A stretch of 64,000 nt of DNA from Actinomycetota bacterium (GCA_016717115.1 JADKGE010000001.1:508584-572583); one strand, 5' to 3'; counted from the stretch's first letter, positions 6,735-27,018 are shown. Notes: generated by a model from the sequence alone, not told the origin. Numbers and translations are program-made.

Positions 6735-6798
6735 TTCGAGGCGTCGGCCGTCCGGTCTTTCCCGCATGTCGACCGCCACCCGAACGAGAGGCTCCCCC

Positions 6799-7772: not shown

Positions 7773-9007
7773 GCACCACCACCAACGCCGGCGTAGACAT
7801 CACCGACCCGGCCACCTACGCGAACGGGATCCCCCACTCGGTCTTCGCCGAGATGCGGCGCACCGAGCCGATCGCCCGGCGGATGTATGCGGAGCGGCCG
7901 TTCTGGGCCGTCACCCGGTATCGAGATCTCGTCACGGTGACGCGCGACCCTCGTACGTACTCCAATGCCCGTGGCATGACGAACCTCCCGGACCTCACCG
8001 AAGAGCAGATGAACGCCCGGCGCTCGATCATCGACACCGATGCACCGGACCACGTGCGCCTGCGCAAGCTCGGCATACCGGCGTTCACCAGCCACAAGGT
8101 GAAGTCCTACGAGGACGTCACCCGTGACATCGCGACCCAGCTCCTCAGGGACGCGGCCGAGCAGGGATCGGTCGATGTCGTCCAGAGCATCAGTGCTCCG
8201 CTGCCGATCAGGGTGATCATCAACATCCTTGGAGTGCCCGAGGCGGATGCGGCCATGCTCGTGCAGTGGTCGGACGAGCTCATCGACTCCACGGGTGTTC
8301 CCGCGGACGCCTATGGCAACACGACTCCGCTGGAGCTCCTGCCGTTCAGCGCGCCCGCCTCGCATGCGCTCTTCGAGTACGGGCGGAAGATGCGGGAGGA
8401 GCGCACCAGAAACCCCAAGGACGACCTCACCACGGCCCTCGTCGATGCCCGATACGAGGGCGAGGCGCTGTCGGACTACGACTTCAAGAACATGTTCCAC
8501 GTGCTGGTGTTCGCCGGCAACGAGACGACGCGCACAGCGATCAGCAACGGCATCCAGGCCTTCGTCGAGAATCCCGACCAGCTCGACCTCCTGTACGCCC
8601 GGCCGGAGCTCGTCGAGAATGCCGTCGAGGAGATCATCCGCTGGGCCACTCCGGTACTGCATATGCGCCGAACGGCGACCCAGGACACCGAGCTCGCGGG
8701 CGTGCCCATCAAGGAGGACGACAAGGTCGTCATCTTCTACGCATCGGCCAATTTCGACGACGAGGAGTTCACCGACCCGTTGCGCTTCGACATCACCCGA
8801 CCGGTGAAGCCGCCGCAGGTCTCGTTCGGGGCGAAGGGCCCCCACCACTGCCTGGGTGCCCCGCTCGCGCGCATGGAGATCCGCGTCCTGCTCGAGGAGA
8901 TGATCAAGCAGGGCACACGGTTCGAGCAGGCCGGGTCGATCGTCCGCACGAACTCCAGCTTCGTGAACGGCATCGCGGCATTTCCTGCAATCGTCACCTC
9001 GCGCTGA
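7769..9007 (+). CDS. cytochrome P450
   Basis: ORF 7769..9007. Motifs present: I-helix VFAGNETTRTA, ExxR, and heme-thiolate loop FGAKGPHHCLGAPLA. There is an ATGA overlap with the upstream ADH reading frame. Confidence 0.93.
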   Translation: MSTTTNAGVDITDPATYANGIPHSVFAEMRRTEPIARRMYAERPFWAVTRYRDLVTVTRDPRTYSNARGMTNLPDLTEEQMNARRSIIDTDAPDHVRLRKLGIPAFTSHKVKSYEDVTRDIATQLLRDAAEQGSVDVVQSISAPLPIRVIINILGVPEADAAMLVQWSDELIDSTGVPADAYGNTTPLELLPFSAPASHALFEYGRKMREERTRNPKDDLTTALVDARYEGEALSDYDFKNMFHVLVFAGNETTRTAISNGIQAFVENPDQLDLLYARPELVENAVEEIIRWATPVLHMRRTATQDTELAGVPIKEDDKVVIFYASANFDDEEFTDPLRFDITRPVKPPQVSFGAKGPHHCLGAPLARMEIRVLLEEMIKQGTRFEQAGSIVRTNSSFVNGIAAFPAIVTSR

Positions 9008-9100: not shown

Positions 9101-10672
9101 TTACGAGACGAAGTTGTGCACAGCGTCGTAGTTCTCCTTGTCGCGACGCACCGCACCGAGGACCAGTCCCACCACGAAGATGATGAACGGCAGGAGCACG
9201 AGGAACCACCCGAGCGAGGTCATCTCGAACGGCCCGCAGCCCGAGCCTGCCTCACCCGGGCACATCGCCGGGTCCTGGGCCACACCCGCGAGCAGGTTGA
9301 ACCGGCTCATCAGCATGAACTCGCCGAGGGCCAGTCCGATGATCGCCAACACGGGTGCGATCAGCGTGTTCCAGACCCGGGAATCCTCCTTGGTGCGGCG
9401 GAAGTACACGATGACCGAAATGCTCACCAGGATCTCGGTGAGCACGATCGCGATGACCGAGACAGACGAGAACCAGTAGAAGACGTTCAGGATCGGGTCC
9501 CACTTGAAGATGATCGCAACGATCACCATGAGCACGGCGGCAACGCTCACGACGGTGGTCGCGGTGAACGGCGCCTGCTGCTTGTTGGTGTGGTCGAGCC
9601 GCTTCGGCAGCACGCCCGCGCGTCCCATCGAGAACAGGTAGCGCGCCGCGCTGTTCTGGAACGCCAGAGTCGCCGCGAACAGCGACGTCAGGACGATCCA
9701 GCCGAACAGCTCAGTCAGCCACGAGCCCACGAAGTCCGTCGTCAGCCCGAAGAGCATGGCCGAGGGATCAGCCAGAGGGACTCCTTCGATGGCCGTGACC
9801 TCGAAGACCTTGTTCTGGATGTCAGTGGCGCCGAGGCCCGTGACCATGCCGAAGCCGACGAAGGCGAAGATCACGGTGATGAGGACGACCGAGATGTAGG
9901 TGGCGCGCGGGACCGTCTTCTTCGGGTCCCTCGACTCCTCGCCGTAGATCGCCGTGGCCTCGAACCCGATGAAGGACGCCAGCGCGAAGGCGAAGGCGAC
10001 GCCTGCACCCCCGGTCAGTCCACCGGCCAGGACGGCGCTCGGGCTGAAGGACGCAGCGAAGTCCGGACCCTCCGGGCCTCCGTCGACGATCGCCGCGAAG
10101 CCGACCACGACCAGGGAGATGAGCTCGATCGTGAGGAGGACACCGAGGAACTTCGCCCCGATATCGACGGAGAGCGCCGACAGGACGAACACGATGATGA
10201 TGATGACGATGGCGTAGATCCACCACTCGAGGACGATGCCGAACTTGGCGTCGAACTGGAGCTTCATCTGGAAGGCGATGAACCCGATGACGGCCCACTG
10301 GACCGCCAGGTAGGCGAGCACCGACACCGCGGCCGAGCCGACGCCGGGAACGATGCCGAGCCCGCGACCGACGTAGGCGAAGAAGGCGCCCGTGTTCGTG
10401 ACGTAGTGGCTCATCGTCGCGTAGCCGACGCTGAAAAGCAGCAGGACGATGCCGACGGCGACGTACATCCCTGCCGCACCCGCGCCGTTGCCGATGCCGA
10501 CGGCGACTGGGAAGGCTCCCGTCATACCCGCCAAGGGCGCCGACGCAGCGACGACGAAGAAGATGATGCCGAGAAGGCCGAGCGTGCCCCGCCTCAGCGT
10601 TGTGTCGGGGGTCTCCGGATCAGGAGCACCGAGGTGCTGATCGGATTCGGGAAGGTTCTCCCTCTGGGACAT
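9101..10672 (-). CDS. APC-superfamily amino acid/amine permease
   Basis: ORF 9101..11239 trimmed to the ATG at 10672, preceded by GGAGGC (MSQRENLPES...). The protein is polytopic and hydrophobic throughout (12-TM-like) with an APC-type N-terminus GLLGIIFFVVAASAPLAGMTG. The upstream part of the ORF is non-protein-like. Confidence 0.88.
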   Translation of the reverse strand: MSQRENLPESDQHLGAPDPETPDTTLRRGTLGLLGIIFFVVAASAPLAGMTGAFPVAVGIGNGAGAAGMYVAVGIVLLLFSVGYATMSHYVTNTGAFFAYVGRGLGIVPGVGSAAVSVLAYLAVQWAVIGFIAFQMKLQFDAKFGIVLEWWIYAIVIIIIVFVLSALSVDIGAKFLGVLLTIELISLVVVGFAAIVDGGPEGPDFAASFSPSAVLAGGLTGGAGVAFAFALASFIGFEATAIYGEESRDPKKTVPRATYISVVLITVIFAFVGFGMVTGLGATDIQNKVFEVTAIEGVPLADPSAMLFGLTTDFVGSWLTELFGWIVLTSLFAATLAFQNSAARYLFSMGRAGVLPKRLDHTNKQQAPFTATTVVSVAAVLMVIVAIIFKWDPILNVFYWFSSVSVIAIVLTEILVSISVIVYFRRTKEDSRVWNTLIAPVLAIIGLALGEFMLMSRFNLLAGVAQDPAMCPGEAGSGCGPFEMTSLGWFLVLLPFIIFVVGLVLGAVRRDKENYDAVHNFVS

Positions 10673-10699
10673 GCTGCCTCCACGGGCGTGCGAACAGGA

Positions 10700-10719
10700 A
10701 TCGTGCGGTACCGAACGAT
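10700..10719. promoter_or_regulatory. candidate operator ATCGTGCGGTACCGAACGAT (site D of a 4-member palindrome family)
   Basis: 20-nt imperfect palindrome located 28 nt upstream of the permease start, in the divergent permease/LLM-oxidoreductase intergenic region. It matches the sites at 15230, 16086 and 20715. Confidence 0.55.
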
Positions 10720-10822
10720 GGCAAACCATGACGTATGACACCCCTCCGGTCAAGCGCTTTCGAGAAGTGTCCGCAAACTGATGGCAAGGTGTGACCAGCC
10801 AGCGACTCGACGAGGAGGGACA

Positions 10823-11773
10823 ATGACTCGACCCCGATCCGGCGCGCCGCGCATGGTGAGCGTGCTGACGGAGAACTGGACGATGACCGACCCCCGCGAC
10901 ATCCGCGGCATCGTCCGCATGGCGCAGGAGGCCGAGGATGCCGGCTTCGACATGGTCATGGTGAGCGACCATGTTCTCCTGGGTCCCTCCGCCGGCAGCC
11001 AGGGTCGGATGGACAACCCTCGCGACTACGCGATGCCGGGCAACCAGGACCCCTTCACCGCGTGGCCGTCGAACATCGTCCTTCTCAGCGCCGTCGCCGC
11101 GGCCACCACGCGCGTCCGGATCGGGGCGATCGCCCTCATCGCCCCCCTGCGGCACCCGCTCGTGCTGGCGCACGATCTGGCCACCCTCGACCTGTTGAGC
11201 GAGGGACGACTCGTCATCCAGCCGACCGTCAGCTGGCACAAGGACGAGTACGACGCCATCGGCGTGCCGTGGGGCCGCCGGGGCCGCATCCTCGACGAGC
11301 AGCTGCGCATCTGGGAGCAGGTGTGGGCGCGCTCACCGGTGAGTTTCGAGGGAGAGTTCTTCTCCTTCGACGACGTCTACCTCGAGCCAAAGCCGACGCG
11401 CCCCGAAGGCCCCGCCATGTGGTTCGGCGGTGATCGGGTCCACGGGGCCATCGTCGACAGGTTGGTCCGCTACGGCAGCGGCTACCACCCCCTGGGGAAG
11501 GTCACCGACGAGGATGTCGCCACCCTGAGGATCGCCCTCGCCGAAGCAGGTCGGTCGATGGCGGATCTCGAGCTCGTTGGCGGCACCCGGGTGGACTTCC
11601 CGGGCAGTGACGTCGTGGCCCCCTTGCCGGAGGCGCTCGAGGAGATCCCCCGGCAGCAGGCGCTCGGCTTCACGACTTTCGTCGTCAAGCCATCGATCTT
11701 CATCGACCATCGGGAGGACCATCCAGCGTTCTGCCGCGAGGTCATCGATCGGGTGGCAGCCTTGACGTCGTGA
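10823..11773 (+). CDS. luciferase-like monooxygenase (LLM) class, probably F420-dependent oxidoreductase
   Basis: ORF 10781..11773 trimmed to the ATG at 10823 after GAGGAGGG. The sequence is LLM-like (AEDAGFDMVMVSDHVLLG, TIM-barrel pattern). There is a GTGA overlap with the following P450 frame. Confidence 0.8.
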   Translation: MTRPRSGAPRMVSVLTENWTMTDPRDIRGIVRMAQEAEDAGFDMVMVSDHVLLGPSAGSQGRMDNPRDYAMPGNQDPFTAWPSNIVLLSAVAAATTRVRIGAIALIAPLRHPLVLAHDLATLDLLSEGRLVIQPTVSWHKDEYDAIGVPWGRRGRILDEQLRIWEQVWARSPVSFEGEFFSFDDVYLEPKPTRPEGPAMWFGGDRVHGAIVDRLVRYGSGYHPLGKVTDEDVATLRIALAEAGRSMADLELVGGTRVDFPGSDVVAPLPEALEEIPRQQALGFTTFVVKPSIFIDHREDHPAFCREVIDRVAALTS

Positions 11774-12941
11774 GTGCCTACGCCGAGTCGATCACCGTCG
11801 AGGATCTCGAGGACGACCCCTACCCGGTCTACGCCAGGCTGCGCGCCGAGGCGCCGGTCGCATGGGTGCCGGCCGTCGGCCTGTGGCTGGTCACGCGGGC
11901 CCCCGACGTCGAGTTCGTGACGACACACCCGAACTGTTCTCCGCTCACGTCGACAGCTCGCCGCTGGACCGATCCTTCGGCGGGCCGACGATCCTGACGG
12001 TCGACGGCGCGGTACATCTCGACCTCCGGCGCAGCCTGGATGCGAAGTACAAGCCGCGGGTCGTCGCGTCGTACATCGACGACCTCGTCACTCCGATCGC
12101 CCAGGCCGCACTCGACGCCGTGCTCGCCCGATCCGACCGGCGGGCCGAGCTGATGTCGTGCTACTTCGAGCCCATCTCTGTGCTGAGCCTCGGCGCCGTG
12201 CTGGGCCTGGGCCACCTTTCGGCGGAGACGCTGCAGGACTGGTTCCACGGGCTCGCCATGGGGGCCATCAACTTCGAGAACGACCCGGCGAAGCAGCGGG
12301 TCAACGACGAGACGGCCGCGCGTATCGATGCCGAGCTCCGGCCGCTCATGGAGCACCTGCAGCGACAGCCCGACGGCTCAACCATCGCCTCGATGCTGAC
12401 GGTCGAGCGAATGCGGACCATCGAGGAGGTGCTCCCGTCGCTCAAACTGATCATCCTCGGCGGCATGCAGGAGCCCGGCCACGGCGCCGGATCCTGTCTC
12501 TACGGTCTCCTCTCGGATCCCGACCAACTCGAGCTCGTCCGCGCCGAGCCCGAGAGGTGGGACGAAGCCGTGCATGAGGGGCTGCGCTGGGTTGCTCCCA
12601 TCGGCACGCAGACCCGCCAGGCCCGCGAGGACGTCGCGATGGCGGGGACGGTCATACCGGCCGGCGCACCTGTGGGTGCCGTGGTCGCCAGCGCCTGCCG
12701 GGACGATTCGGAGTTCGACGACCCGGATCGGTTCGACATCCGACGCGAACGGCGACCCAACGCGGCCTTTGGATTCGGCCCGCACTTCTGCGCCGGCCAC
12801 GCCTTCGCCCGTGGCCAGGAGCGCATCGCACTGCGCACGCTCGTCGACGCCGTGCCCGACCTCGCTCTCGACACCCGCCATGAGGTTGCCTTCCGAGGCT
12901 GGGAGTTCCGCGCGCCGACTGAGCTCAACGTCGCTTGGTGA
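11770..12941 (+). pseudogene. cytochrome P450, frameshifted near the 5' end
   Basis: The N-terminus lies in ORF 11770..11997 (DPYPVYARLRAEAPVAWVPAVGLWLVTRAPDVEFVTTHP). The remainder lies in ORF 11862..12941 (ELFSAHVDSS...FGFGPHFCAGHAFARG). The frames join only if one base is restored around 11928..11933 (cacccgaactg). Confidence 0.8.
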
Positions 12942-12953
12942 AGCCGCATCCGC

Positions 12954-13799
12954 TCAGCCGAAGACGATGGTGCGCTTTCCGTCGAGCACGATCCGGTCCT
13001 CGGCGAACAGCCTGACCGCACGTGCCAGCACCAGGCGCTCAACGTCACGACCGATCTCAGCCAGGTCGTCGGGCGTCGCCGCGTGGTCAACGCGCTGCAC
13101 GCCCTGCTCGATGATCGGCCCCTCGTCGAGGGCCGCGGTCACGAAGTGCGCCGTCGCACCGATGAGCTTGACGCCGCGGGCGTGGGCCTGGTGGTACGGC
13201 CGTGCCCCCTTGAACCCCGGCAGGAAGGAGTGATGGATGTTGATGATGCGTCCCGGCAACCGCGAGCAGATCTCGTCGGACAGCACCTGCATGTACCGGG
13301 CCAGGACGATGACATCGATGGCGTGCTCCTCGACGAGCGCCAGCAGCTCGAGCTCCTGCGCGGACCTGGTCTCCGGCGTGACCGGCAGGACGACGAAGGG
13401 GATGCCGTGACGCTCCGCGACCCCTCGGCAGTCCTCGTGGTTCGACACCACCAGGGGGATCTCCACGGGAAGCTCCCCGTTGCCGTAGCGGTAGAGCAGG
13501 TCGACGAGGCAGTGGTCGTACTTCGAGACCATTACCAGCACCCGTCGACGCGACTGCTCGAGGCGCACGTCCACCGTCGGCACGAAGCGCGCGGTCCTCT
13601 CGGCGATCACCGTGCGCACCGAGGCGGCGTCCTCGCCCGGCGCCTCGAAGCGGGTCCGCATGGCGAACAGGCCCGAGTCCTGATCCGTGAACTGCGCCTG
13701 CTCGAGCACGTTCGCCGACACGTCGAGCAGCGCTCCCGCCACGGCGTGGATGATGCCGGGACGGTCCTGGCAGGTGAGCGTGAGGATGAAGTGGGGCAC
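12954..13799 (-). CDS. purU: formyltetrahydrofolate deformylase
   Basis: ORF 12954..13799. An N-terminal ACT domain (MPHFILTLTCQDRPGIIHAVAG) is followed by a formyltransferase domain (IINIHHSFLPGFKGARPYHQA). Confidence 0.92.
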   Translation of the reverse strand: MPHFILTLTCQDRPGIIHAVAGALLDVSANVLEQAQFTDQDSGLFAMRTRFEAPGEDAASVRTVIAERTARFVPTVDVRLEQSRRRVLVMVSKYDHCLVDLLYRYGNGELPVEIPLVVSNHEDCRGVAERHGIPFVVLPVTPETRSAQELELLALVEEHAIDVIVLARYMQVLSDEICSRLPGRIINIHHSFLPGFKGARPYHQAHARGVKLIGATAHFVTAALDEGPIIEQGVQRVDHAATPDDLAEIGRDVERLVLARAVRLFAEDRIVLDGKRTIVFG

Positions 13800-13841
13800 G
13801 CGCCTATCGTGGACTAGCGCTCGCGTGACTCGTCAGGCGGT

Positions 13842-15194
13842 CTAGTAGTCCTCGAGGTACTCGTCGAGCTCCCACTGCGTCACGTCCCGGGTGGTCGGGT
13901 CCTCGACCTCGGCCTCGTACCGCGCCACCTCGTCACGCTTCAACGTGGTGAACACGTCGATGAAGTCGCCAGTGAGCAGGTGTCGAAGCGCCGGATTCGC
14001 CTGAAGCGCGTCGAGGGCCTCCTTGAGCGACATCGGCAGCACGGGGCGGGCCTCGTCCTCGTACGCCCAGCCCTCGGCCGCCGGCGGCGGCGTCAGCTCC
14101 CGCCGGATGCCGTCGAGGGCGGCCGCCAGAACCACGGCGATCACCACGTACGGGTTGGCCGAGCCGTCACCGATGCGCAGCTCCAGGCGCGTGCCCTGTC
14201 CGCGCTCCGGTGGGATGCGGATCATCGTGGAGCGGTTGTCGTATCCCCAGTTGGACCGGTAGGGCGCGAGAGTGTCGGGTCCGAGTCGCTTGTAGGCGTT
14301 GACGGTCGGGTTGGTGAATGCGGCGATGGCGTCGGCGTGCTCGATGACCCCGGCGATCATCTGGCGGGCCATTCCCGACAGGGCGCCGTCGCCGTCGTGC
14401 ATCAGATTGACGCCCTCCGCGTCCGTGACGGAGAAGTGCAGGTGGAAGCCGCTGCCGCCCTCGTCGCTCCACGGCTTGCCGAGGAACGTGCCGAGGATCC
14501 CACGCATCGCGGTGACGTCCTTGATGGCCGTCTTGAACAGGAACGTCCGGTCGGCGGCATCCATCGCCTCGCTGTGCCACAGGTTGATCTCGTACTGCGA
14601 CGGGCAGAACTCGTGGTTGCCCGCGAAGGCGCCGATGTTGAGCTGGTCAAGCATGCGCAGCAGGTGGAGGTAGTGGCCGTCGGGGTCGACATGCGCCCCC
14701 GTCGTGTAGACGCGACCGGTCTTGTTGAGGATGCGCTCCCAGCCGTCCTTCCCCCGTTGGGCGAAGTAGAACTCCAGCTCGGGGCCGCAGACCGGGACGA
14801 GGCCCAGCTTGTCGTACTCGTCGAGCACGCTGCGCAGGACGGCGCGGGGCGCGACGTCGCTGCGGGATCCGTCCGGGTTGTCGATGTCGGCGATGGCGTA
14901 GGCGACGCCCGGCAGCCACGGGATGGGCCGGATGGTGTCGGTGTCCAGGCTCGCCACCATGTCGGGCAGGCCGTCGCCGAAGCTGCCCGTTCCGGCGTCG
15001 AGCACGCCCCCGCGCGTGGTGGTGACCCAGGTGCCCTGGCAGAAGGCGGGTCCGTGGGCGGCGGAGCGCTCCAACTGCGAGACCAGCAGGTCCTTCGAGC
15101 GGGTGATGCCCAGGAGGTCCGTGAAGATCAGTCGGACGACATCGATGCCCTGGGTCTCCAGGACTCGGCGGGTCTCGGCCAGGTCGTGCAGCAT
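13842..15194 (-). CDS. glutamine synthetase-fold ligase (second candidate gamma-glutamyl-amine synthetase)
   Basis: ORF 13842..15278 trimmed to the ATG at 15194 (MLHDLAETRRVL...). GS catalytic motifs are present (PELEFYF, HEFCPSQYEIN, GSGFHLHFS, NAYKRL, NPY). Confidence 0.88.
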   Translation of the reverse strand: MLHDLAETRRVLETQGIDVVRLIFTDLLGITRSKDLLVSQLERSAAHGPAFCQGTWVTTTRGGVLDAGTGSFGDGLPDMVASLDTDTIRPIPWLPGVAYAIADIDNPDGSRSDVAPRAVLRSVLDEYDKLGLVPVCGPELEFYFAQRGKDGWERILNKTGRVYTTGAHVDPDGHYLHLLRMLDQLNIGAFAGNHEFCPSQYEINLWHSEAMDAADRTFLFKTAIKDVTAMRGILGTFLGKPWSDEGGSGFHLHFSVTDAEGVNLMHDGDGALSGMARQMIAGVIEHADAIAAFTNPTVNAYKRLGPDTLAPYRSNWGYDNRSTMIRIPPERGQGTRLELRIGDGSANPYVVIAVVLAAALDGIRRELTPPPAAEGWAYEDEARPVLPMSLKEALDALQANPALRHLLTGDFIDVFTTLKRDEVARYEAEVEDPTTRDVTQWELDEYLEDY

Positions 15195-15229
15195 GGGTCT
15201 CCCTCGCAAGGCGGACGGGATCCAGCGAA

Positions 15230-15249
15230 ATCGTTCGGACCCCAACGAT
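15230..15249. promoter_or_regulatory. candidate operator ATCGTTCGGACCCCAACGAT (site A)
   Basis: 20-nt imperfect palindrome in the 125-nt divergent region between the GS-like gene (start 15194) and the GATase gene (start 15320). Confidence 0.55.
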
Positions 15250-15319
15250 CTGGTGGATACTAGGCGCTCCCCGGCCATCGGGGAAGCACTTTGGACATTA
15301 GACCCCGATGAGGTGGCTC

Positions 15320-16027
15320 ATGCGCGCGTTGTTCCTCCAGCACGATCACCTCAGTCCCCCGGGGCCTGTGGCCGAGCGCTTCGCGCATCGCGGATACGCG
15401 ATCGCCGAGGCGAGCGTCGTGCCGCCGGAGGACTTCCACGCACCCAACAAGCCGTTCGACTTCCCCGATCCCCGCGAGTTCGATGCCCTCGTCGTCATGG
15501 GTGCCCCCTGGGGTGCCTGGGATGACGAAACGATCGGCAACTGGCTGCTGCCGGAGATCGAGTGGCTCCGCGAGGCCGACGACCTCGGTGTCCCCGTCTT
15601 CGGCATCTGCTTCGGCGGCCAGCTGCTGGCGCGAGCGCACGGCGGCTCCGTGGCACGGGCGCCCCGGCCGGAGATCGGCTGGACCTCGATCTGGACCCAG
15701 GAACCCGGCCTGGTCGGCTCCGGCCCGTGGTTCCAGTGGCACTACGACCGCTGGCAGGTCCCCCCGGGCGCCCGCGAGATCGCCCGCAACTCGATGGCCT
15801 CCCAGGCCTTCGTGCTGCGCCGCAACCTCGCCGTGCAGTTCCATCCCGAGCTGACGGCTGCCGGGCTGCAGGGCTGGCTGGAGAACGGCGGCCGCGCCGG
15901 CGTCGTCGCCGACGGCCAGGATCCCGCCATCCTCTACCAGCACACGCTGGCCGAGGGCGAGGAAGCGGCTCGCCGGGCGCACGACCTGGTGGACGCGTTC
16001 CTCGACCGAGTGGCCCATGCGCCCTAG
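15320..16027 (+). CDS. class-I glutamine amidotransferase-fold protein (second copy)
   Basis: ORF 15308..16027 trimmed to the ATG at 15320 after GAGGTGG. The nucleophile motif GICFGGQLLARAHGG is present. It is a paralog of 4643..5341. Confidence 0.85.
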   Translation: MRALFLQHDHLSPPGPVAERFAHRGYAIAEASVVPPEDFHAPNKPFDFPDPREFDALVVMGAPWGAWDDETIGNWLLPEIEWLREADDLGVPVFGICFGGQLLARAHGGSVARAPRPEIGWTSIWTQEPGLVGSGPWFQWHYDRWQVPPGAREIARNSMASQAFVLRRNLAVQFHPELTAAGLQGWLENGGRAGVVADGQDPAILYQHTLAEGEEAARRAHDLVDAFLDRVAHAP

Positions 16028-16085
16028 CCGCGGCGCGCCGAGGTCGCCGTTCCCCTTGACCGCACGCGCACTGGCTCCCTAGCCT

Positions 16086-16105
16086 TCCGTTCGGACCCGA
16101 ACGAT
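16086..16105. promoter_or_regulatory. candidate operator TCCGTTCGGACCCGAACGAT (site B)
   Basis: Best palindrome of the family (CGTTCGG-AC-CCGAACG). It ends 30 nt upstream of the P450 ATG at 16135. Confidence 0.55.
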
Positions 16106-16134
16106 CCACCAGCCCCTACCTGTCAGGAGGCTCG

Positions 16135-17394
16135 ATGAAGCCCACCCCCGTACCCCTGTCGGACGTGAACCTTGCCAACCTCGACTACTTCGTCGCTGAC
16201 GAGGCTTGGGGGATGTTCGACACGCTGCGGGCCGAGGACCCCCTGCACTGGCAGGACGAGCCGGACAGCGATGGCCACGGTTTCTGGTCCGTGACCCGCT
16301 ACGACGACATCGAGATGGTCAACAAGGACGGCGAGACGTTCACCTCGACCAAGTTCGTCAACCTCGAGGAGCCCCCCGCCGAGTTCCAGGACCTCCGCCG
16401 CTCGATCCTCGAGAGCGACGGCTCCCGGCATCAGGCACTGCGCAAGCTGCTCGCCCGCGACTTCAGCGTTGCCCAGCTGCGCCGCTACGAGGACTTCCTC
16501 CGCGGCCTGGCCCGCATGTCCATCGAGTCCGCCCTCGAGCAGGAGGACATCGACTTCGTCGACGCGATCGCCGCGGACTTCCCGATCAATGTTCTGGCTC
16601 GGCTGCTCGACGTGCCCGACGACATGATCCCTCAGCTCATCACCTGGGGTAACACAATCGTCGGCTTCTCGGACCCCGAGCTGTCGGATGTGCTCGTCGA
16701 CAGCGACGAGGCCCAGCAGTACAAGCACCTGCCCTTCCGGTCACCCGTCTCCCTCGAGATCTTCGAGTACGGCCGGCAGCTGGCGAAGGAGCGCCGGGGC
16801 GGCGACGGCGAGGATCTGGTCAGCAAGCTGGTCAACCGCATCCCGGAGGACGGCGTCCCGCTCACGGACACGGACTTCGACAACTACTTCCTGCTCCTCG
16901 TCGTGGCCGGCAACGAGACGACCCGGCAGGCCATGACGCTGTCCATGAAGGGGCTCATGGACCACCCTGACCAGATGCAGTACTTCCTCGACAACATGGA
17001 CAAGTCGCAGATCATGGTCGAGGAACTCATCCGCTACGCCTCGCCGGTGTACCACTTCCGCCGCACCGCGACCAAGGACATCGAGCTGCACGGCAAGACC
17101 ATCAAGGAGGGCGACAAGGTCGTCATGTGGTTCGCCTCGGGCAACCGCGACGACGCCAAGTTCACCGACCCGTACGGCCTCGACCTCACGCGGTTCCCGA
17201 ACGACCACATGACCTTCGGCAAGGGCCCCCACAGTTGCCTCGGCGCGAACCTCGCGCGGATGGAGATCCGAATCCTCTTCGAGGAGTTGCTTCCCCGCCT
17301 GGCCTCGATCGAGCAGACGGGCGAGATCGAGCGGGTGCGCAGCAACTTCGTCAACGGAGTGAAGCGCTTCCCGGTCCGGGTCAAGGCGAAGTAG
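16135..17394 (+). CDS. cytochrome P450
   Basis: ORF 16135..17394 with RBS AGGAGG. Motifs present: I-helix VVAGNETTRQA and heme loop FGKGPHSCLGANLA. Confidence 0.93.
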   Translation: MKPTPVPLSDVNLANLDYFVADEAWGMFDTLRAEDPLHWQDEPDSDGHGFWSVTRYDDIEMVNKDGETFTSTKFVNLEEPPAEFQDLRRSILESDGSRHQALRKLLARDFSVAQLRRYEDFLRGLARMSIESALEQEDIDFVDAIAADFPINVLARLLDVPDDMIPQLITWGNTIVGFSDPELSDVLVDSDEAQQYKHLPFRSPVSLEIFEYGRQLAKERRGGDGEDLVSKLVNRIPEDGVPLTDTDFDNYFLLLVVAGNETTRQAMTLSMKGLMDHPDQMQYFLDNMDKSQIMVEELIRYASPVYHFRRTATKDIELHGKTIKEGDKVVMWFASGNRDDAKFTDPYGLDLTRFPNDHMTFGKGPHSCLGANLARMEIRILFEELLPRLASIEQTGEIERVRSNFVNGVKRFPVRVKAK

Positions 17395-17397
17395 TCG

Positions 17398-18375
17398 ATG
17401 ACGGAGACCGAGACCCGGCTCAGGGAGTTCGAGAGCGACCTCGTTGTCGAGTCGTACGAGGTCGTCGCGGAGGACGTGGTCGCCGTTACGCTCGTCCACC
17501 CGCAGGGCGAGGCGCTGCCCGCGTGGACGCCGGGCGCGCACATCGACCTGATCCTCACTCCTGAGATCACCCGTCAATACTCGCTGTGCGGCTCGCCGGC
17601 CGATGCCCACCGGTTCACGGTCGGCATCCTGAACGCACCGAACAGCCGGGGCGGCTCACGGCATGTCCACGAGGCCGTCAGCACGGGCAGCGTGATCAGG
17701 ATCCGAGGGCCGCGGAACCACTTCCCCCTGGTGGCGTCACCTCGGTACGTGTTCATCGCCGGCGGCATAGGCGTCACGCCCATGCTGCCGATGATCGCGG
17801 AGGCCGAGGCGGCACGTGCCGAATGGACGCTCCTGTACGGCGGACGCAGCGAGGCGTCGATGGCGTTCATCGACCAGTTGCGCGCCTACGGCGACCGCGT
17901 GACCCTCCTGCCCGGCAACGACGTGGCCCTCATGTCCGCCGCGCTGGACGACCGGATCGGCACCCCCCGGCCGGACACCCTCGTCTACACCTGCGGGCCG
18001 GAGGGACTCCTCGGTGCCGTGGAGGCACGGTGCGCCAGCTGGCCGACCGGCTCGCTGCACCTCGAGCGCTTCGCGGCCAAGGCCACCGAAGGCGCGGTGG
18101 ACACCGAGTTCGAGGTCGAGCTGGCCCGCACGGGGATCACCATCACCGTCCCTGCCGATAGGTCCATCTTCGACGCGGTCCAGGACCACGGCATCAGCGT
18201 GCTCGGCTCCTGTCACGAGGGAGTCTGCGGGACGTGCGAGACCGTGATCCTCGGCGTTGACGGCGAGGTCGACCATCGCGACTCCGTCCTGAACGACGAG
18301 GAGAAGGCAAGTAACGAGTCCATGATGATCTGCGTGTCGCGATGCAGGTCGGGCCGACTCACCCTCGACCTTTGA
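17398..18375 (+). CDS. PDR/VanB-type oxidoreductase (flavin reductase domain + C-terminal plant-type 2Fe-2S ferredoxin)
   Basis: ORF 17398..18375. Motifs present: flavin motif RQYSL, NAD domain GGIGVTPM, and C-terminal CHEGVCGTCET...C cluster motif. Confidence 0.9.
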   Translation: MTETETRLREFESDLVVESYEVVAEDVVAVTLVHPQGEALPAWTPGAHIDLILTPEITRQYSLCGSPADAHRFTVGILNAPNSRGGSRHVHEAVSTGSVIRIRGPRNHFPLVASPRYVFIAGGIGVTPMLPMIAEAEAARAEWTLLYGGRSEASMAFIDQLRAYGDRVTLLPGNDVALMSAALDDRIGTPRPDTLVYTCGPEGLLGAVEARCASWPTGSLHLERFAAKATEGAVDTEFEVELARTGITITVPADRSIFDAVQDHGISVLGSCHEGVCGTCETVILGVDGEVDHRDSVLNDEEKASNESMMICVSRCRSGRLTLDL

Positions 18376-18391
18376 GCCAGGAGAGCTGACG

Positions 18392-19408
18392 ATGAGTGCT
18401 GCGATTCCCGTTCCCCGCGACTGCTGGTACGCCCCGGCGGCCTCGAGCGAGGTGGGCCGCGAACTGGTCCCCGTCCGCGCTGCCGGCCTACCGGTTGTCC
18501 TCTACCGGACCGAGTCCGGTGCCGTCGTCGCGCTCGAGGACCGGTGCGCGCACCGGGCCTACCCCCTCAGCGCCGGCGAGCTCATTGGGGACACCGTCCG
18601 CTGTGGCCTGTGCGGCTTCGTCTACGGCCCTGACGGGCAGTGCATCAGCGTGCCCACGCAGCCGCACGTCCCGTACGGCGCGCGGGTGGCGTCCTACCCC
18701 GTGCAGGAGGCCGACGGCCTGGTCTGGGTGTGGCTGGGCGAGCCCGGCCGTGCGGGACTTCACCGCATTCCCGATCTGCCGTGGCTCGATGACGACGGCT
18801 GGTCCACGGTCTCCGGCGAGGAGGACGTGCTCGCCTCGTTCCTCCTCCTGCACGAGAACTTCGCCGACGTCACGCAGGTGCCCTTCGTCGCGCCCGACAT
18901 CGCGCCGTCGGTTCTCGGCAGCACCCCTCCGCCCCTCGAGGTGGTCGTGAGCGAGACGTCGGTGTCGCTGCATCGCGACTTCCCGCCCGCACCCCTGCCG
19001 GAGTGGCAGGCCGAGATCGTCGGCTGCCCACCCGACGCGCCTTACCGCACCGAGCAGTCAGGGTTCTTCCCCTCGCCGGCCGTGTGGGTCGACCACTGGG
19101 ACGCCCAGGCTGCGGACGGCACCTGGATCCGACTCCGCTTCACGCACCTCGTCACGCCGATCGACGAGTCCAGCAGTCGGCTGCTGTGGGCGGTGAGCCG
19201 CGACTTCGCCCTGGGCAACCGCGCGGTCGACCAGTACCTGGGCGGGATCTTCACCGACTACTACGAGCGCGTGATCGACGCGATGGAGATCGCGCAGGAG
19301 GTGCTCGAGATCGACGGCCCGGGGCCAGAGGTCAACGTCAACGCCGACGCGGTCGGACTCAAGGTGCGCGAGATCGTGGACGCACTGCTCACTGCCGAAG
19401 GGGCCTGA
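18392..19408 (+). CDS. VanA-like Rieske-domain protein with non-canonical metal ligands
   Basis: ORF 18392..19408 with RBS AGGAGAG. It aligns by eye with vanillate demethylase VanA (WY..., EDRCAHR...). The second Rieske box reads CGLCG instead of CxYHG. The catalytic motif DxxHxxxxH reads DVTQVPFVA. Confidence 0.8.
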   Translation: MSAAIPVPRDCWYAPAASSEVGRELVPVRAAGLPVVLYRTESGAVVALEDRCAHRAYPLSAGELIGDTVRCGLCGFVYGPDGQCISVPTQPHVPYGARVASYPVQEADGLVWVWLGEPGRAGLHRIPDLPWLDDDGWSTVSGEEDVLASFLLLHENFADVTQVPFVAPDIAPSVLGSTPPPLEVVVSETSVSLHRDFPPAPLPEWQAEIVGCPPDAPYRTEQSGFFPSPAVWVDHWDAQAADGTWIRLRFTHLVTPIDESSSRLLWAVSRDFALGNRAVDQYLGGIFTDYYERVIDAMEIAQEVLEIDGPGPEVNVNADAVGLKVREIVDALLTAEGA

Positions 19409-19447
19409 CCACAGCAGCCCGGCAGTGCCAGCAGGCCATCGTCTACT

Positions 19448-19978
19448 GTGCACCGAGGATTCGAGGGGGATGATGTGGCAGGACCGCACACACTGGCGGA
19501 GACCGAGCGGGCTGCCGAGTCGCGCATCGCCGGACTCGAGCTCGACATCGAGTCTCTCCACGTCGTCTCCAACCTGTTCCGCGCCGCCAACGCCGTGCGC
19601 AACCACATGGAGCGCGAGGTGCTCACCCCGGCGGACCTCACCTGGACGGCCTTCGTCGTCCTGTGGGTCACCTGGATCTGGGGCAGCACCGAGACCCGGG
19701 TCATCGCCGAGGAGACCGGGGTGTCGAAGGCGACGCTCAGCGGAGTCCTGACGACGCTCGAGAAGCGCGGGCTGGTCCGGCGCACCAAGAGCGAGGCCGA
19801 CGGCCGGCTCGTCCTCGTCGAGCTCACCCCACGCGGACGACGGCTGATCACGCGCCTCTTCCCCCGCATCAACGCGGAGGAGACCCACGCCACGCGGCTG
19901 CTTCCGGGCGGATCCAAGGAGGAATCGGCCGAGCTCCTGCGTCTGATGGTGCTCGCTGTCGAGAGTCCCTCCTCCTAA
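19448..19978 (+). CDS. MarR-family transcriptional regulator
   Basis: ORF 19448..19978 (GTG, start uncertain). The winged-HTH core TRVIAEETGVSKATLSGVLTTLEKRGLVRRTKSEADGRLVLVELTPRG is typical MarR. Confidence 0.88.
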   Translation: MHRGFEGDDVAGPHTLAETERAAESRIAGLELDIESLHVVSNLFRAANAVRNHMEREVLTPADLTWTAFVVLWVTWIWGSTETRVIAEETGVSKATLSGVLTTLEKRGLVRRTKSEADGRLVLVELTPRGRRLITRLFPRINAEETHATRLLPGGSKEESAELLRLMVLAVESPSS

Positions 19979-20667
19979 CGGCCGGCCTCCGCCACGAGCT
20001 TTCGGAAGGGCAGGAGCTGATCCGGATCGACGTCGTAGGTGTCCTCGGGGTGCCACTGGACGCCGGCGGCCCAGCCGTTCGACGCGATCGACACGGCCTC
20101 GACCACGCCGTCCTCCGCGCGACCAAGCACCGTGATGCCGTCGGCCACGCGCTCGACCTCCTGGTGGTGGTAGCAGGAGCAGGTGATCGGCAGGTTGCCG
20201 ACGCCCAGGTGGTCGTCCGGGTCGTCGATCGCCACCCGATGCACGTGATGACGGTGGTTGACGTCCATGTCGATCACGAGGGTGCCCCCCAGGAGCGCGT
20301 TCACGACATGCAGGCCGCGGCAGACAGCCAGAGTCGGGATCCCCTGGTCGAGTGCGAACTGCGCGAGCGTGAAGTCGGTCTCGTCCTGCACCTCGTCGAC
20401 GTCGTACAGCGCGACGTGGGTCGGGTCGCCGCCGTAACGGCGCGGATTGACGTCACCGCCTCCGGGCAGCAGGACGCCGTCGACGCCGCGGAGCCGGTGC
20501 TTCCAGTCCACGGCGTCTGGCCCCGCGGCGGGCAGCAGCACGTGCGGGTCGCCGCCCGCGGCCCAGACGGCCTCGAGGAGCTTGCGCGCGGCGACGACTC
20601 CTCGGTAGCGCAGGGCGCTGGCCGACTCGGTGTATCGACCGGGGATGGCGATGATGGGACGGGACAC
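19975..20667 (-). CDS. gamma-glutamyl-gamma-aminobutyrate hydrolase family protein (peptidase C26, PuuD-like)
   Basis: ORF 19975..20811 trimmed to the GTG at 20667 after AAGGAGG. C26 motifs are present (LPGGGDVNP, LAVCRGLHVVN, GVQWHPE). Confidence 0.88.
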   Translation of the reverse strand: MSRPIIAIPGRYTESASALRYRGVVAARKLLEAVWAAGGDPHVLLPAAGPDAVDWKHRLRGVDGVLLPGGGDVNPRRYGGDPTHVALYDVDEVQDETDFTLAQFALDQGIPTLAVCRGLHVVNALLGGTLVIDMDVNHRHHVHRVAIDDPDDHLGVGNLPITCSCYHHQEVERVADGITVLGRAEDGVVEAVSIASNGWAAGVQWHPEDTYDVDPDQLLPFRKLVAEAGR

Positions 20668-20714
20668 GGTTCCTCCTTGCCGAGAAGGATGCACCATTCC
20701 AGAACAATTCGCTT

Positions 20715-20734
20715 TCCGTTTGGTTCCTAACGAC
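20715..20734. promoter_or_regulatory. candidate operator TCCGTTTGGTTCCTAACGAC (site C, most divergent)
   Basis: Lies in the 106-nt divergent region between the C26 hydrolase start (20667) and the ALDH start (20774). It keeps the frame CGTTnGG-N2-CCnAACG. Confidence 0.45.
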
Positions 20735-20773
20735 CTAGGATGTGCCGACGAACCGCCGCCCCGTAGGAGCCCT

Positions 20774-22237
20774 ATGAGCACGATCAGCATCGCCGGAGTC
20801 GACGTCGACACCCGGCACTGGATCGGTGGTCAGCGCGTCGCCTCTGCCGAGACGTTCGAGGACGTCTCGCCGGTCGACGGTCACCTTCTCGGCCAGGTCG
20901 CTCGCGGGGGGAGGCCCGAGGCGGATGCAGCCGTGGCCGCAGCCCAGGCCGCGTTCCCGGCATGGTCGAGGATGAGCCCGGAGGAGCGGGGCGAGATCCT
21001 CTTCCGCCTGGCCGACTCCATCGAGGCGCATGTCGAGGAGCTGTCCCAGATCGAGACCCTCGACAACGGCTCCCTACTGCGGTCGCACCGCCGCGGGGTC
21101 ATGCCCCGGGTCGCCATGAACATCCGGTTCTTCGCCGACTACGCGATCAACCGCTTGAGCCATCCGGAGTTCGAGACGCGGGGTCACACCAATCACGTGT
21201 CGTGGGACCCCTCCGGCGTCGCGGTGATCATCACCCCCTGGAATGCGCCACTGATGCTGGCGACGTGGCGCATCGGCCCGGCCCTCGCGTCGGGTGACAC
21301 GGTCGTCCTCAAGCCACCCGAGTGGGCTCCGCTGACCGCCTCGTACTTCGCCGATCTCGCGCACGAGGCCGGCCTGCCGCCGGGCGTGTTCAACGTCGTG
21401 CAGGGCTTCGGCACGGAGGCCGGGGCGCCGCTGACGGCCAACCCGGACGTTTCTCGCATCTGCTTCACCGGATCGGTGCCCACTGCGAAGGTGATCGCAC
21501 GCGCGGCCGCCGACAATCTGGTGCCGTGCTCGTTCGAGCTCGGCGGCAAGAGCCCGACGGTGATCCTCGACGATGCCGACCTCGATCTCGCGGTCGACCT
21601 CGCCGTGGAGCAGTACGACAACGCGGGCCAGGTGTGCCTGGCGGGAACGCGGCTGCTCGTGCAGCGCGGCATCGCCGAGGCCTTCACCGAGCGCTTCCGT
21701 GAGCGGGCGACGCAGATCCGCCAGGGCGACCCGCGCGACGAGGACACCCAGATCGGCCCCAACATCCACCTGAAGCACATCGAGCGGGTGCAGGGCTTCG
21801 TCGACCGAGCGAGGAGCGACGGCGCGACCATCGCCTACGGCGGCGACGTCAACACCGACCTCGGGCCGCACTACTTCCGGCCGACGTTGGTCGTCGACGC
21901 ACCTGCGGGCAGCGAGATCCTCACCCAGGAGGTCTTCGGGCCCGTCCTCACGATGCAGGTGTTCGACACCGACGACGAGGGCCTCGAACTCGCCAACGGG
22001 ACGGAGTTCGGCCTCGCCGCCTGCGTCGTGTCCGGCAGCCGCACGAGGGCCGAGGCCTTCACCAAGCACCTCGTTGCCGGCACCATCTGGGTCAACTGCT
22101 TCTTCGTCCGCGACCTGTCTGCCCCCTTCGGCGGATCCAAGAAGTCCGGCATCGGCCGCGAGGGCGGCGTCTGGTCGTTCGACTTCTACGCAGACGTGAA
22201 GAACACCGTCTACGCCCCCAACGGTTGGAAGGACTAG
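20774..22237 (+). CDS. aldehyde dehydrogenase (ring-fission semialdehyde dehydrogenase by context, HpaE-like)
   Basis: ORF 20630..22237 trimmed to the ATG at 20774 (MSTISIAGVDVDTRHWIGG). ALDH motifs ELGGKSP, FTGS and catalytic Cys AGQVCLAGTRL are present. It lies directly upstream of the extradiol dioxygenase. Confidence 0.88.
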   Translation: MSTISIAGVDVDTRHWIGGQRVASAETFEDVSPVDGHLLGQVARGGRPEADAAVAAAQAAFPAWSRMSPEERGEILFRLADSIEAHVEELSQIETLDNGSLLRSHRRGVMPRVAMNIRFFADYAINRLSHPEFETRGHTNHVSWDPSGVAVIITPWNAPLMLATWRIGPALASGDTVVLKPPEWAPLTASYFADLAHEAGLPPGVFNVVQGFGTEAGAPLTANPDVSRICFTGSVPTAKVIARAAADNLVPCSFELGGKSPTVILDDADLDLAVDLAVEQYDNAGQVCLAGTRLLVQRGIAEAFTERFRERATQIRQGDPRDEDTQIGPNIHLKHIERVQGFVDRARSDGATIAYGGDVNTDLGPHYFRPTLVVDAPAGSEILTQEVFGPVLTMQVFDTDDEGLELANGTEFGLAACVVSGSRTRAEAFTKHLVAGTIWVNCFFVRDLSAPFGGSKKSGIGREGGVWSFDFYADVKNTVYAPNGWKD

Positions 22238-22239
22238 TC

Positions 22240-23145
22240 ATGGGTGAGTTCGTCGCTGCCGGCCTGCTGTCGCATGTGCCGACGATCATGCTTCCGGAGG
22301 CCACGCGCCGCGAGATCAACGAAGGCAAGGAGCTCTCGCTCGTGACGTCCCTGCGACAGCTGCGCAAGGACGTGTTCGAGACGCTGGACTACGACACCGT
22401 GATCGTCCTCGACTCGCACTGGTTCACCACCGTGGAGTTCATCATCACGTCTCACGCGCGCCGAGCGGGCCTGTTCACTGCCGAGGAACTGCCCCGCGGC
22501 ATGTGCCGGATCCCCTACGAGTGGCGGGGCGACCCCGAGTTCGCCCACTCCATCGCGTCCCACGCCGACGAGGTCGGCACGTGGATCACCCCCGTCGACG
22601 ACGAGTACCTGCCGCTGTACTACCCCTCGATCAACCTGTGGTCCTACCTCGGCAAAGGCCTCGACAAGCAGTGGCTGTCGATGAGCGTGTGCCAGACGGC
22701 CGACACCGAGGACTACCTGCGGGTCGGCCGGGCCATCGGCAAGGCGATCGAGGACGTCGACCGCAAGGTCATCATCCTTGCGACAGGATCCCTGTCGCAC
22801 ACCTTCTACCCGCTGCGCGAGATCCGCCTCAACCCAGCGGTCGAGCGGTCGGACCCCAAGTACATCGTCAGCGACAAGGCAAGGGAGATGGACTACGAGC
22901 GCCTCGCCTGGTTTGCCGAGGGCCGGCACGACAAGGTGCTCGACACCATGGACGAGTTCCTCACCGTCCGCCCCGAGGGCAAGTTCGCGCACTACCTGAT
23001 GATGGCCGCCGCGCTCGGCGAGTCCGAGTTCGCTGCGCCGGGCCGTCAGATCTCCGACTACGAGAACTCGGTCGGTACGAGCCAGGTGCATGTCTGGTTC
23101 GACCGTCCCGAGACCGGATGGACGCGCAAGGGAGCCGCCGCATGA
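22240..23145 (+). CDS. hpaD: class III (LigB-type) extradiol dioxygenase resembling 3,4-dihydroxyphenylacetate 2,3-dioxygenase
   Basis: ORF 22225..23145 trimmed to the ATG at 22240. Blocks align by eye with E. coli HpaD/HpcB: LSHVPTIMLPE, DTVIVLDSHWF, GDPEFAHSIA, LATGSLSHTF, GTSQVHVWF. Confidence 0.75.
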   Translation: MGEFVAAGLLSHVPTIMLPEATRREINEGKELSLVTSLRQLRKDVFETLDYDTVIVLDSHWFTTVEFIITSHARRAGLFTAEELPRGMCRIPYEWRGDPEFAHSIASHADEVGTWITPVDDEYLPLYYPSINLWSYLGKGLDKQWLSMSVCQTADTEDYLRVGRAIGKAIEDVDRKVIILATGSLSHTFYPLREIRLNPAVERSDPKYIVSDKAREMDYERLAWFAEGRHDKVLDTMDEFLTVRPEGKFAHYLMMAAALGESEFAAPGRQISDYENSVGTSQVHVWFDRPETGWTRKGAAA

Positions 23146-24020
23146 CCGAGTACCGCCGCATCCTCCTCGAGGGGGCTCCGGTCCAGGCCGTCCGCCACGG
23201 CGACGAGCTCGTCGCCGCTGACGGGCGCACGATAGGCGTCGACGACGCGATCCACCTGCCGCCCGTGGAGCCCACGAAGATCATCGCGGTGCACCTCAAC
23301 TACGACTCCCGCACGCAGGAGTTCATGACGAAGCTGCCGCCCGCGCCCACCTACTTCCACAAGCCGATCACGGCGCTGAACTCCCACAAGGGCGCGGTCG
23401 TGCGGCCGGAGGGATGCAAGTGGCTGAACTACGAGGGCGAGATCGTCATCGTCATCGGACGCACGTGCCGCAACGTCTCGCCCGAGGAGGCCGGTGACTA
23501 CATCGCCGGCTACACCGTCGGCAACGACTACGGCCTGCACGACTTCCGCGACACCGATGCCGGCTCGATGCTGCGGGTGAAGGGCTCCGACACCCTTGCC
23601 CCCATCGGCCCCGGGCTGGTCACGGGCTGGGACTTCCACAACAAGGGCATCCAGACCCGCGTCAACGGAGAGGTCAAGCAGGACTCGACGACGGCGGAGA
23701 TGGAGTGGGACATGCACTACCTCGTCGCCGACATCGCCCGCACCATCACGCTGGTGCCCGGCGACATCCTCTTCTCGGGCACCCCCGCGTTCTCGCGCAC
23801 GGTCTACCCCGGCGACGTGGTCGAGGTGGAGGTCGAGGGCCTCGGCACCCTGAGCAACACCATCGTGCAGGGGCCGGTGCCCATCCGCGACGACTGCGGT
23901 GCGCAGCCGACCGAGAGCGAGGAGGTCGTCTCGACAGCCATGGGCGGCGACTGGGAGTTCCGTGGCATCCGCACCCCCTCGAAGGACCTGTACCCCTCCA
24001 CGGTGGAGGAGAAGGAGTAG
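23142..24020 (+). CDS. fumarylacetoacetate hydrolase (FAH) family protein (HpaG-like decarboxylase/isomerase, single domain)
   Basis: In the frame of ORF 22503..24020, starting at ATG 23142 (ATGA overlap with hpaD). FAH motifs are present: YEGEIVIVIGR, GYTVGNDY, PGDILFSGTP. Confidence 0.85.
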   Translation: MTEYRRILLEGAPVQAVRHGDELVAADGRTIGVDDAIHLPPVEPTKIIAVHLNYDSRTQEFMTKLPPAPTYFHKPITALNSHKGAVVRPEGCKWLNYEGEIVIVIGRTCRNVSPEEAGDYIAGYTVGNDYGLHDFRDTDAGSMLRVKGSDTLAPIGPGLVTGWDFHNKGIQTRVNGEVKQDSTTAEMEWDMHYLVADIARTITLVPGDILFSGTPAFSRTVYPGDVVEVEVEGLGTLSNTIVQGPVPIRDDCGAQPTESEEVVSTAMGGDWEFRGIRTPSKDLYPSTVEEKE

Positions 24021-24022
24021 GC

Positions 24023-27014: not shown

Positions 27015-27018
27015 TCGC

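Follow-up and report, generated by a model that had tools for sequence, protein, structure and literature searches.

Conserved palindromes as probable operators of a MarR-family repressor in an Actinomycetota gene cluster suggestive of aromatic-amine catabolism

Here we report that a 64,000-nt stretch of DNA from an Actinomycetota bacterium (GCA_016717115.1 JADKGE010000001.1:508584-572583; 69% G+C, about 88% coding), referred to below as the window, carries four copies of a 20-nt palindrome in the promoter gaps of a single gene cluster. Judged by comparison with related clusters in other genomes, these palindromes are very probably the operators of a MarR-family repressor encoded within the cluster itself (19475-19978). 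The conserved gene set suggests that the controlled pathway serves the catabolism of an aromatic amine. We infer all three parts of this switch, namely MarR as the binder, repression as its action and the identity of its effector. The four sites, with their scores under a matrix rebuilt on the sites of other genomes, are as follows.

10700..10719, operator D, ATCGTGCGGTACCGAACGAT, 22.5 bits; in the gap between the divergent genes for an amino-acid permease (- strand) and a luciferase-like (LLM) oxidoreductase (+ strand)
15230..15249, operator A, ATCGTTCGGACCCCAACGAT, 28.6 bits; in the gap between the divergent genes for a glutamine synthetase (GS)-like ligase (- strand) and a class-I amidotransferase (GATase; + strand)
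16086..16105, operator B, TCCGTTCGGACCCGAACGAT, 27.1 bits; ahead of the P450-reductase-Rieske-MarR operon (16135-19978)
20715..20734, operator C, TCCGTTTGGTTCCTAACGAC, 21.3 bits; in the gap between the divergent C26 hydrolase gene (- strand) and aldehyde dehydrogenase (ALDH) operon (+ strand)

An earlier note on this DNA had listed these four 20-mers and described them as intergenic; all were found exactly where and as it gave them, and all lie between genes. Its figure of 28-90 nt for the distance to the start codons needs correction, as the measured range is 27-103 nt. The distances are 27 nt (permease ATG, 10672) and 103 nt (LLM ATG, 10823) for operator D, 35 nt (GS-like start, 15194) and 70 nt (GATase ATG, 15320) for operator A, 29 nt (P450 ATG, 16135) for operator B, and 47 nt (C26 GTG, 20667) and 39 nt (ALDH ATG, 20774) for operator C.

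With at most two mismatches allowed, the 16-nt core CGTTCGGNNCCGAACG matches the 64-kb window at these four places only, while dinucleotide shuffles contained 1.0 match on average and reached four in 3 of 100 cases; with three mismatches allowed, matches in the window were not above chance. Under the rebuilt matrix the four sites score 21.3-28.6 bits and the next best window position 10.9, where a mean of 0.05 hits of at least 15 bits is expected (200 first-order Markov simulations). The earlier note had also pointed to a half-site upstream of a pseudogene. The 8-mer CCGAACGA is indeed present at 6780-6787, but it has no matrix score and occurs 10 times in the window, genes included, and for these reasons we do not count it as a fifth site.

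The strongest support comes from other genomes. A homologue scan with one genome per species returned 309 loci, from which the best 80 were kept with 10 kb either side of the MarR gene (1.06 Mb in total; MarR 56-90% identical to that of the window). They derive from metagenome-assembled genomes (MAGs) labelled Nanopelagicales, Actinomycetales and Microbacteriaceae and from the isolates Parafrigoribacterium soli, P. humi and Lacisediminihabitans profunda. Scanned with the window-derived matrix, 79 of the 80 loci showed sites, the exception having its MarR gene at a contig edge. The sites lie at the promoter gaps of the same gene set, which bears out the conservation upstream of orthologues that had been named as a check. 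A matrix refined on these loci gave 277 sites of at least 15 bits, as against 1-6 in ten simulated copies of the sequence. Intergenic enrichment, likewise named beforehand, was complete: none of the 277 sites falls inside a gene annotated by tblastn, although such genes make up 63% of the bases, and for about 274 of them the surrounding gap is bordered by cluster genes. These gaps include those between P450 and MarR (76 sites), GS and GATase (51), C26 and ALDH (31), permease and ADC-like genes (30), and MarR and ALDH (16).

Searches with the window proteins (tblastn) recovered the same enzyme set in nearly all loci, in varied order and orientation. The P450 gene, for example, is co-directional with MarR in the clade of the window and divergent from it in most others, and an ADC-like gene adjoins the permease in many loci. 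Each promoter nevertheless retains a site although lineages differ in gene order and orientation. Operator C has 47 orthologous sites in the C26/ALDH or MarR/ALDH gaps, and operator D has 35 in gaps between the permease and an ADC-like or LLM gene, with syntenic sites in six loci (L001-L004, L006 and L007). This conservation supports the idea, put forward in the earlier note, of one regulon tying together uptake, gamma-glutamylation, P450 oxidation, gamma-glutamyl hydrolysis and ring cleavage.

The association extends to two Streptomyces plasmids, whose MarR homologues are 49-50% identical to that of the window. On pSLUN1 of Streptomyces lunaelactis (L202, 56216-74668) the regulator, 49% identical, lies amid genes for a permease, GS-family, ADC-family, PuuD-like, ALDH, LigB-type and FAH proteins, and eight intergenic matches to a variant motif (CGTTTGa...) occupy the corresponding gaps. 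A Streptomyces canus plasmid (L201) has a single site 64 nt upstream of its MarR homologue. Both plasmids are linear, and in both the cluster adjoins a gene for a SpoIIE-family phosphatase; in the S. canus plasmid a TetR gene and genes of folate one-carbon (C1) metabolism (aminomethyltransferase, purU, folD) are also adjacent. The plasmid location and the C1 neighbours suggest that the cluster moves horizontally and is connected with C1 (demethylation) metabolism.

Refined on the sites of the 80 loci, the consensus is the 20-bp palindrome aTCGTTcGG-NN-CCgAACGAt. Positions T5 and A16 are invariant, and T6/A15 and G8/C13 are kept in at least 94% of motif sites. The GTT and AAC triplets stand 11 bp apart, that is, one helical turn, a spacing that is expected for a winged-helix dimer. 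The motif thus has the form of a MarR-type operator: an inverted repeat of about 16-20 bp, with half-sites one turn apart, situated at a promoter.

The sites also keep a fixed relation to promoter-like boxes. A generic sigma-70 scanner reported no promoter at any of the four sites, and the following elements were recognised only through their conservation across genomes.

10725-10730 (- strand), CATGGT, weak -10-like box of the permease; operator D starts 5 nt further downstream
10748-10753 (- strand), TTGACC, putative -35 box of the permease promoter; the conserved GTCAAG here reads CTTGAC on the permease strand
15256-15261 (+ strand), GATACT, -10-like box of the amidotransferase promoter, 6 nt past operator A
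16056-16061 (+ strand), TTGACC, -35 box of the P450 operon, with an 18-nt spacer to the -10 box
16080-16085 (+ strand), TAGCCT, -10 box of the P450 operon; operator B begins at the next base
20736-20741 (+ strand), TAGGAT, -10-like box of the ALDH operon promoter, 1 nt past operator C

The clearest case is site B, where CTTGAC-N17/18-TAGCCT directly adjoins the operator in every orthologous site (13 of 13), regardless of the gene that precedes it; as operator B begins right after the -10 box, it should cover the transcription start of the P450-reductase-Rieske-MarR operon. In the site A class, 35 of 51 orthologous sites have a hexamer of the form [GA]ATA[CGA]T at 5-8 nt downstream, whereas none of the 51 has one on the other side, and the position of GATACT 6 nt past operator A places this operator over the -35/spacer region. 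For site C, a hexamer TA..A[TA] (TA, any base, G/A/C, A, T/A) recurs at equal offset in 14 of 49 orthologous sites, and we tentatively regard TAGGAT as the -10 box of the ALDH operon. At site D, GTCAAG lies 29 nt from the operator, and a cross-locus alignment places it at 29-33 nt in 16 of 35 orthologous sites; together with CATGGT it may form the permease promoter. Since the operators abut or overlap conserved -35 and -10 boxes, repression by occlusion of RNA polymerase is implied as the likely mode of action.

The earlier note had named the MarR protein as the most obvious candidate binder, and the comparative evidence, in which motif and MarR are kept together, agrees with MarR as the probable binder. 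MarR is the only regulator conserved in the cluster across the 80 loci. A site stands directly upstream of its gene in 58 of them (median distance 71 nt), which indicates autoregulation, and in the remaining loci, as in the window, MarR ends an operon headed by a site.

The protein itself fits this role. It scores 50.7 bits against PF01047 (MarR; cutoff 24.6), and its open reading frame (ORF) opens at 19448; the start is probably the GTG at 19475, because its homologues (more than 1000 clusters at E<1e-10, about 165-167 residues long) begin MAGPHTLAETE. An AlphaFold model (pLDDT 85.7) shows a winged helix-turn-helix with helices at 34-62, 66-78, 83-90, 94-106, 128-150 and 157-172 and a wing formed by strands 110-114 and 122-126, so that helices a1-a6 and the beta wing after the recognition helix of the MarR fold are all in place. 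In the recognition helix, SKATLSGVLTTL (93-104), residues S93-L101, T103 and L104 are invariant in 26 sequences, down to 63% identity, in keeping with the stability of the motif. A Foldseek search against the PDB gave 305 matches at E<=1e-3, with MarR-family regulators in all of the 50 top places listed; structural neighbours include PcaV, HucR/MftR/PecS, HosA, HpaR and OhrR, at 16-28% identity. The best PDB match by sequence is OhrR (E = 1.8e-9). We looked for the sensing cysteine of such a thiol-based redox sensor and found no cysteine at all, and the protein is therefore not a thiol-based sensor. Assignment as HpaR was likewise rejected, as the protein reached 51.7 bits where the equivalog model TIGR02337 requires 121.2. 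Members of the subfamily share an invariant N-terminal segment, G-P-H-T-L-x-E-T-E, which precedes an extra helix, and a Trp-rich helix, LTWTAFVVLWVTWIWG, with four invariant Trp. These two elements and the absent cysteine are unusual for MarR proteins and are candidate ligand-sensing features.

Several points weigh against assigning the palindromes to this repressor. The loci were gathered through MarR, so the comparison covers MarR-bearing clusters only; the matrix was seeded from the window's own sites; and the motif scan took in the window and the collected loci rather than whole genomes. The gap that holds the site upstream of MarR is, for most lineages, that of the P450 promoter as well, and the site is therefore no separate proof of autoregulation. 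Finally, soil metagenomes contain the identical 20-mer in unrelated contexts, as a repeat resembling repetitive extragenic palindromic (REP) elements, which means that the sequence alone does not identify the regulon.

The operators could instead answer to another regulator, either an unlinked global one or the GntR/FCD protein encoded at 142-834, some 10 kb from site D, which the earlier note had offered as an alternative. We consider this improbable, and the GntR proposal found no support. Only 2 of the 80 motif-bearing loci have a GntR homologue within 10 kb, no regulator other than MarR is conserved in the cluster, and the genes beside GntR in the window (ALDH1, the acyl-CoA dehydrogenase, CoA-transferase, GATase1 and GS1) have no site. 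FadR-type GntR operators have short GT-N(0-3)-AC cores, whereas the GT and AC of the present motif are 10 nt apart.

The soil-metagenome copies raise the separate question of whether the palindromes are REP-like or mobile-element copies without a regulatory role. An exact-pattern scan of metagenome contigs returned 120 loci, of which about 14 have cluster genes. Seven of them (L083, L112, L126, L133, L154, L166 and L195) carry a MarR homologue, 43-52% identical, beside the site; a MarR_2 gene beside a REP-like copy (L106) was set aside as generically related only (32% identity over 59 residues). Elsewhere, exact copies of ATCGTTCGGATCCGAACGAT lie by unrelated genes in many contigs, for instance beside purH, carD, an M61 peptidase gene and hrpB. 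Such copies in soil and rhizosphere contigs (L081-L200; examples at L108:9-966, L197:1993-2223 and L192:3341-3454) are often in tandem, at times two or three about 100 bp apart, with extended outer stems formed by additional inverted repeats, and in L108 three copies flank an IS200/Y1-transposase gene. They look like a REP/RAYT-type family that shares the operator sequence. We rejected the scan as a test of specificity, as REP-like copies from unrelated contigs account for many of its other hits.

The palindromes of the window resemble the REP elements of Y1 (RAYT-type) transposases in being intergenic and identical or nearly identical over 20 nt. They differ in being four in number, promoter-specific and conserved with orthologous genes, whereas the REP-like copies in soil contigs are multi-copy, have extended stems and lie by unrelated genes. 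REP elements are typically dispersed in many copies at the 3' ends of genes, without ties to orthologous promoters. Each of the four window copies adjoins the 5' end of a cluster gene, and no convergent 3' ends carry one; their flanks form no extended stem; their positions are fixed relative to orthologous genes and to the -35/-10 boxes across loci whose MarR proteins are 56-90% identical; and deviations in the half-sites, such as CCCAACGAT at site A, are site-specific and conserved. A purely repetitive origin is thus highly improbable for the window sites.

We give hardly any credence to the remaining possibility, an RNA hairpin acting as attenuator, terminator or processing site: site B, lying downstream of its -10 box, would be transcribed and could form a 6-bp stem (z = -2.2 for the 49-nt leader), but for sites A, C and D folding is no stronger than in shuffled sequence (z = -0.2 to -1.0), the -10-like boxes of sites A and C come after the operator, pairing is not kept over the 277 sites (pair 7/14 Watson-Crick in 40%, pair 9/12 in 63%, compensatory double changes rare), and Rfam gave no match for the palindrome sites.

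Assignment of the palindromes to MarR leads to a putative regulon reaching from 9101 to 24832. Its genes, identified by Pfam and NCBIfam profile searches, and those that follow it are listed here.

9101-10672 (- strand), amino-acid permease
10823-11773 (+ strand), luciferase-like (LLM) oxidoreductase
11862-12941 (+ strand), P450-like protein, in one unit with the LLM gene
12954-13799 (- strand), PurU-like gene, following the GS-like ligase
13842-15194 (- strand), GS-like ligase
15320-16027 (+ strand), class-I amidotransferase
16135-17394 (+ strand), P450
17398-18375 (+ strand), FNR/2Fe-2S reductase
18392-19408 (+ strand), Rieske/VanA-like oxygenase
19448-19978 (+ strand; likely start 19475), MarR-family regulator, last in the operator B operon
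19975-20667 (- strand), PuuD-like C26 gamma-glutamyl hydrolase
20774-22237 (+ strand), HpaE-like ALDH
22225-23145 (+ strand), HpaD-like LigB dioxygenase
23142-24020 (+ strand), HpaG-like FAH protein
24020-24832 (+ strand), MppR/ADC-like protein, ending the ALDH operon (20774-24832)
24861-25052, small ferredoxin
25059-26252, ferredoxin reductase
26917-28461, pyridoxal phosphate (PLP)-dependent decarboxylase

These genes would form seven transcription units: permease; LLM with the P450-like gene; GS-like with PurU-like; amidotransferase; P450-reductase-Rieske-MarR; C26; and ALDH-LigB-FAH-ADC-like. The ferredoxin, ferredoxin reductase and PLP decarboxylase genes travel with the cluster and have no site of their own in the window. 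The ferredoxin ORF, at 63 aa below usual length filters, is of the single-cluster 4Fe-4S type (Fer4_15, E = 1e-9); encoded directly upstream of the ferredoxin reductase, it is probably the redox partner of the P450. The P450-like protein at 11862-12941 (359 aa) matches only the C-terminal third of the P450 profile, yet many loci keep it at full length (54-90% identity); it may descend from a P450 by truncation or divergence. A further ORF of 579 aa (28293-30032) has coding-like G+C content at third codon positions and no Pfam match. No cluster enzyme reached an NCBIfam equivalog cutoff, and no substrate can therefore be assigned.

We propose that the recognition helices of a MarR dimer would contact the two near-invariant triplets, GTT and AAC. 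The dimer would thereby cover either the -35/spacer region (sites A and C) or the stretch immediately past the -10 box (sites B and D), and would so close seven promoters. The whole cluster, from uptake through gamma-glutamylation and P450 hydroxylation to gamma-glutamyl hydrolysis and extradiol ring cleavage, would be shut off together, and MarR, whose gene is the last in the operon headed by site B, would shut off its own synthesis as well. Release of the repressor would fall to an aromatic effector, which would be the amine substrate or an intermediate of the pathway. As a gene switch, this arrangement is well supported and mechanistically ordinary.

Similar arrangements are known. PcaV of Streptomyces coelicolor, HpaR of E. 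coli and Acinetobacter, HosA, NadR and CouR are local repressors inside the aromatic-catabolism clusters that they control. With the PcaV/HpaR group the present system shares pseudo-palindromic, promoter-overlapping operators of about 20 bp, probable autoregulation and homoprotocatechuate-type targets (HpaE/HpaD/HpaG-like); Foldseek ranks PcaV first, and for the HpaR-DNA complex the target-normalised TM-score (TMt) is 0.87. It differs from this group in its low identity to solved MarR proteins (16-28%), in the extra invariant N-terminal segment and Trp-rich helix, and, from the hpa and pca systems, in its operator sequence and its regulated gamma-glutamylation/P450 module. The UrtR subgroup (HucR, MftR and PecS) also has an extra N-terminal helix and gives the highest query-normalised TM-scores (TMq 0.72-0.77), but identity is 22-24%, and HucR, MftR and PecS respond to urate and control efflux or uricase genes.

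On the enzymatic side, a GS-like ligase and a gamma-glutamyl hydrolase under a local repressor are also found in the Puu system of E. coli, in GlnA4/EpuRI of S. coelicolor, and in the aniline/1-naphthylamine and ipu systems. The combination of a GS-like enzyme, a P450 and a hydrolase recalls the ipu isopropylamine operon. What sets the present cluster apart from these glutamylation systems is its MarR regulator and the joining of the module to an extradiol ring-cleavage operon, an MppR/ADC-like enzyme and a PLP decarboxylase. Glutamylation of aromatic amines by GS-like enzymes has been described (PMC11335346), and EpuRI represses glnA4 in S. coelicolor (PMC6529630), in a report that states neither the family of the regulator nor its binding site. 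Our literature searches found no description of this regulator, motif or pathway.

A possible course of the pathway can be sketched from the gene set. An aromatic ethylamine would be made from an amino acid by the PLP decarboxylase or imported by the permease, and the GS-like enzyme would gamma-glutamylate it, protecting the amino group. The P450/ferredoxin/reductase system would then hydroxylate the ring, the HpaD/HpaE/HpaG-like (homoprotocatechuate-type) enzymes and the MppR-like enzyme would cleave it, and the PuuD-like C26 hydrolase would remove the glutamate last. More specifically, and only as a tentative suggestion that may well prove wrong, the operator/MarR pair could mark an undescribed pathway, widespread among freshwater and soil Actinomycetota, for a tyramine/dopamine-type ethylamine, with the amine or its gamma-glutamyl conjugate as effector. 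The cluster was seen in Nanopelagicales-type MAGs, in Microbacteriaceae isolates (Lacisediminihabitans, Parafrigoribacterium) and on Streptomyces plasmids.

The window also holds a paralogous set at 142-9007, comprising genes for a GntR/FCD regulator, ALDH, acyl-CoA dehydrogenase, CoA-transferase III, GATase, a GS-like enzyme, a split zinc-dependent alcohol dehydrogenase (ADH) and a P450. Its members are 30-41% identical to their MarR-controlled counterparts and lack the palindrome; presumably it is a separate, GntR-controlled amine pathway. The ADH gene had been called a pseudogene, and its ADH_N (in 6766-7596) and ADH_zinc_N (in 7056-7772) matches do fall in two overlapping frames (6766-7772), consistent with a frameshift. 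The gap at 6689-6765, between the GS-like gene (5342-6688, - strand) and the ADH remnant, is unusually AT-rich (e.g. GATTTCAGATACTTGATAAATGTAGTGTTCG) and may hold the promoter and operator of this paralogous cluster.

The recurrence of the 20-mer as a REP-like repeat in other soil bacteria means that motif scans must weigh gene context. Within that context, a precise operator consensus is kept across distant Actinomycetota, including at least Nanopelagicales-type MAGs, Microbacteriaceae and Streptomyces, and it provides a defined target list for a MarR subfamily of more than 1000 sequence clusters without a characterised member. Roughly 17 genes, of a pathway that looks undescribed, are thereby grouped into one co-regulated unit, which is testable in the cultured Streptomyces lunaelactis MM109, Lacisediminihabitans profunda and Parafrigoribacterium species. 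The MarR/operator pair may serve as a reporter or biosensor and as a handle on the substrate of this gamma-glutamylation/P450/extradiol-cleavage route.

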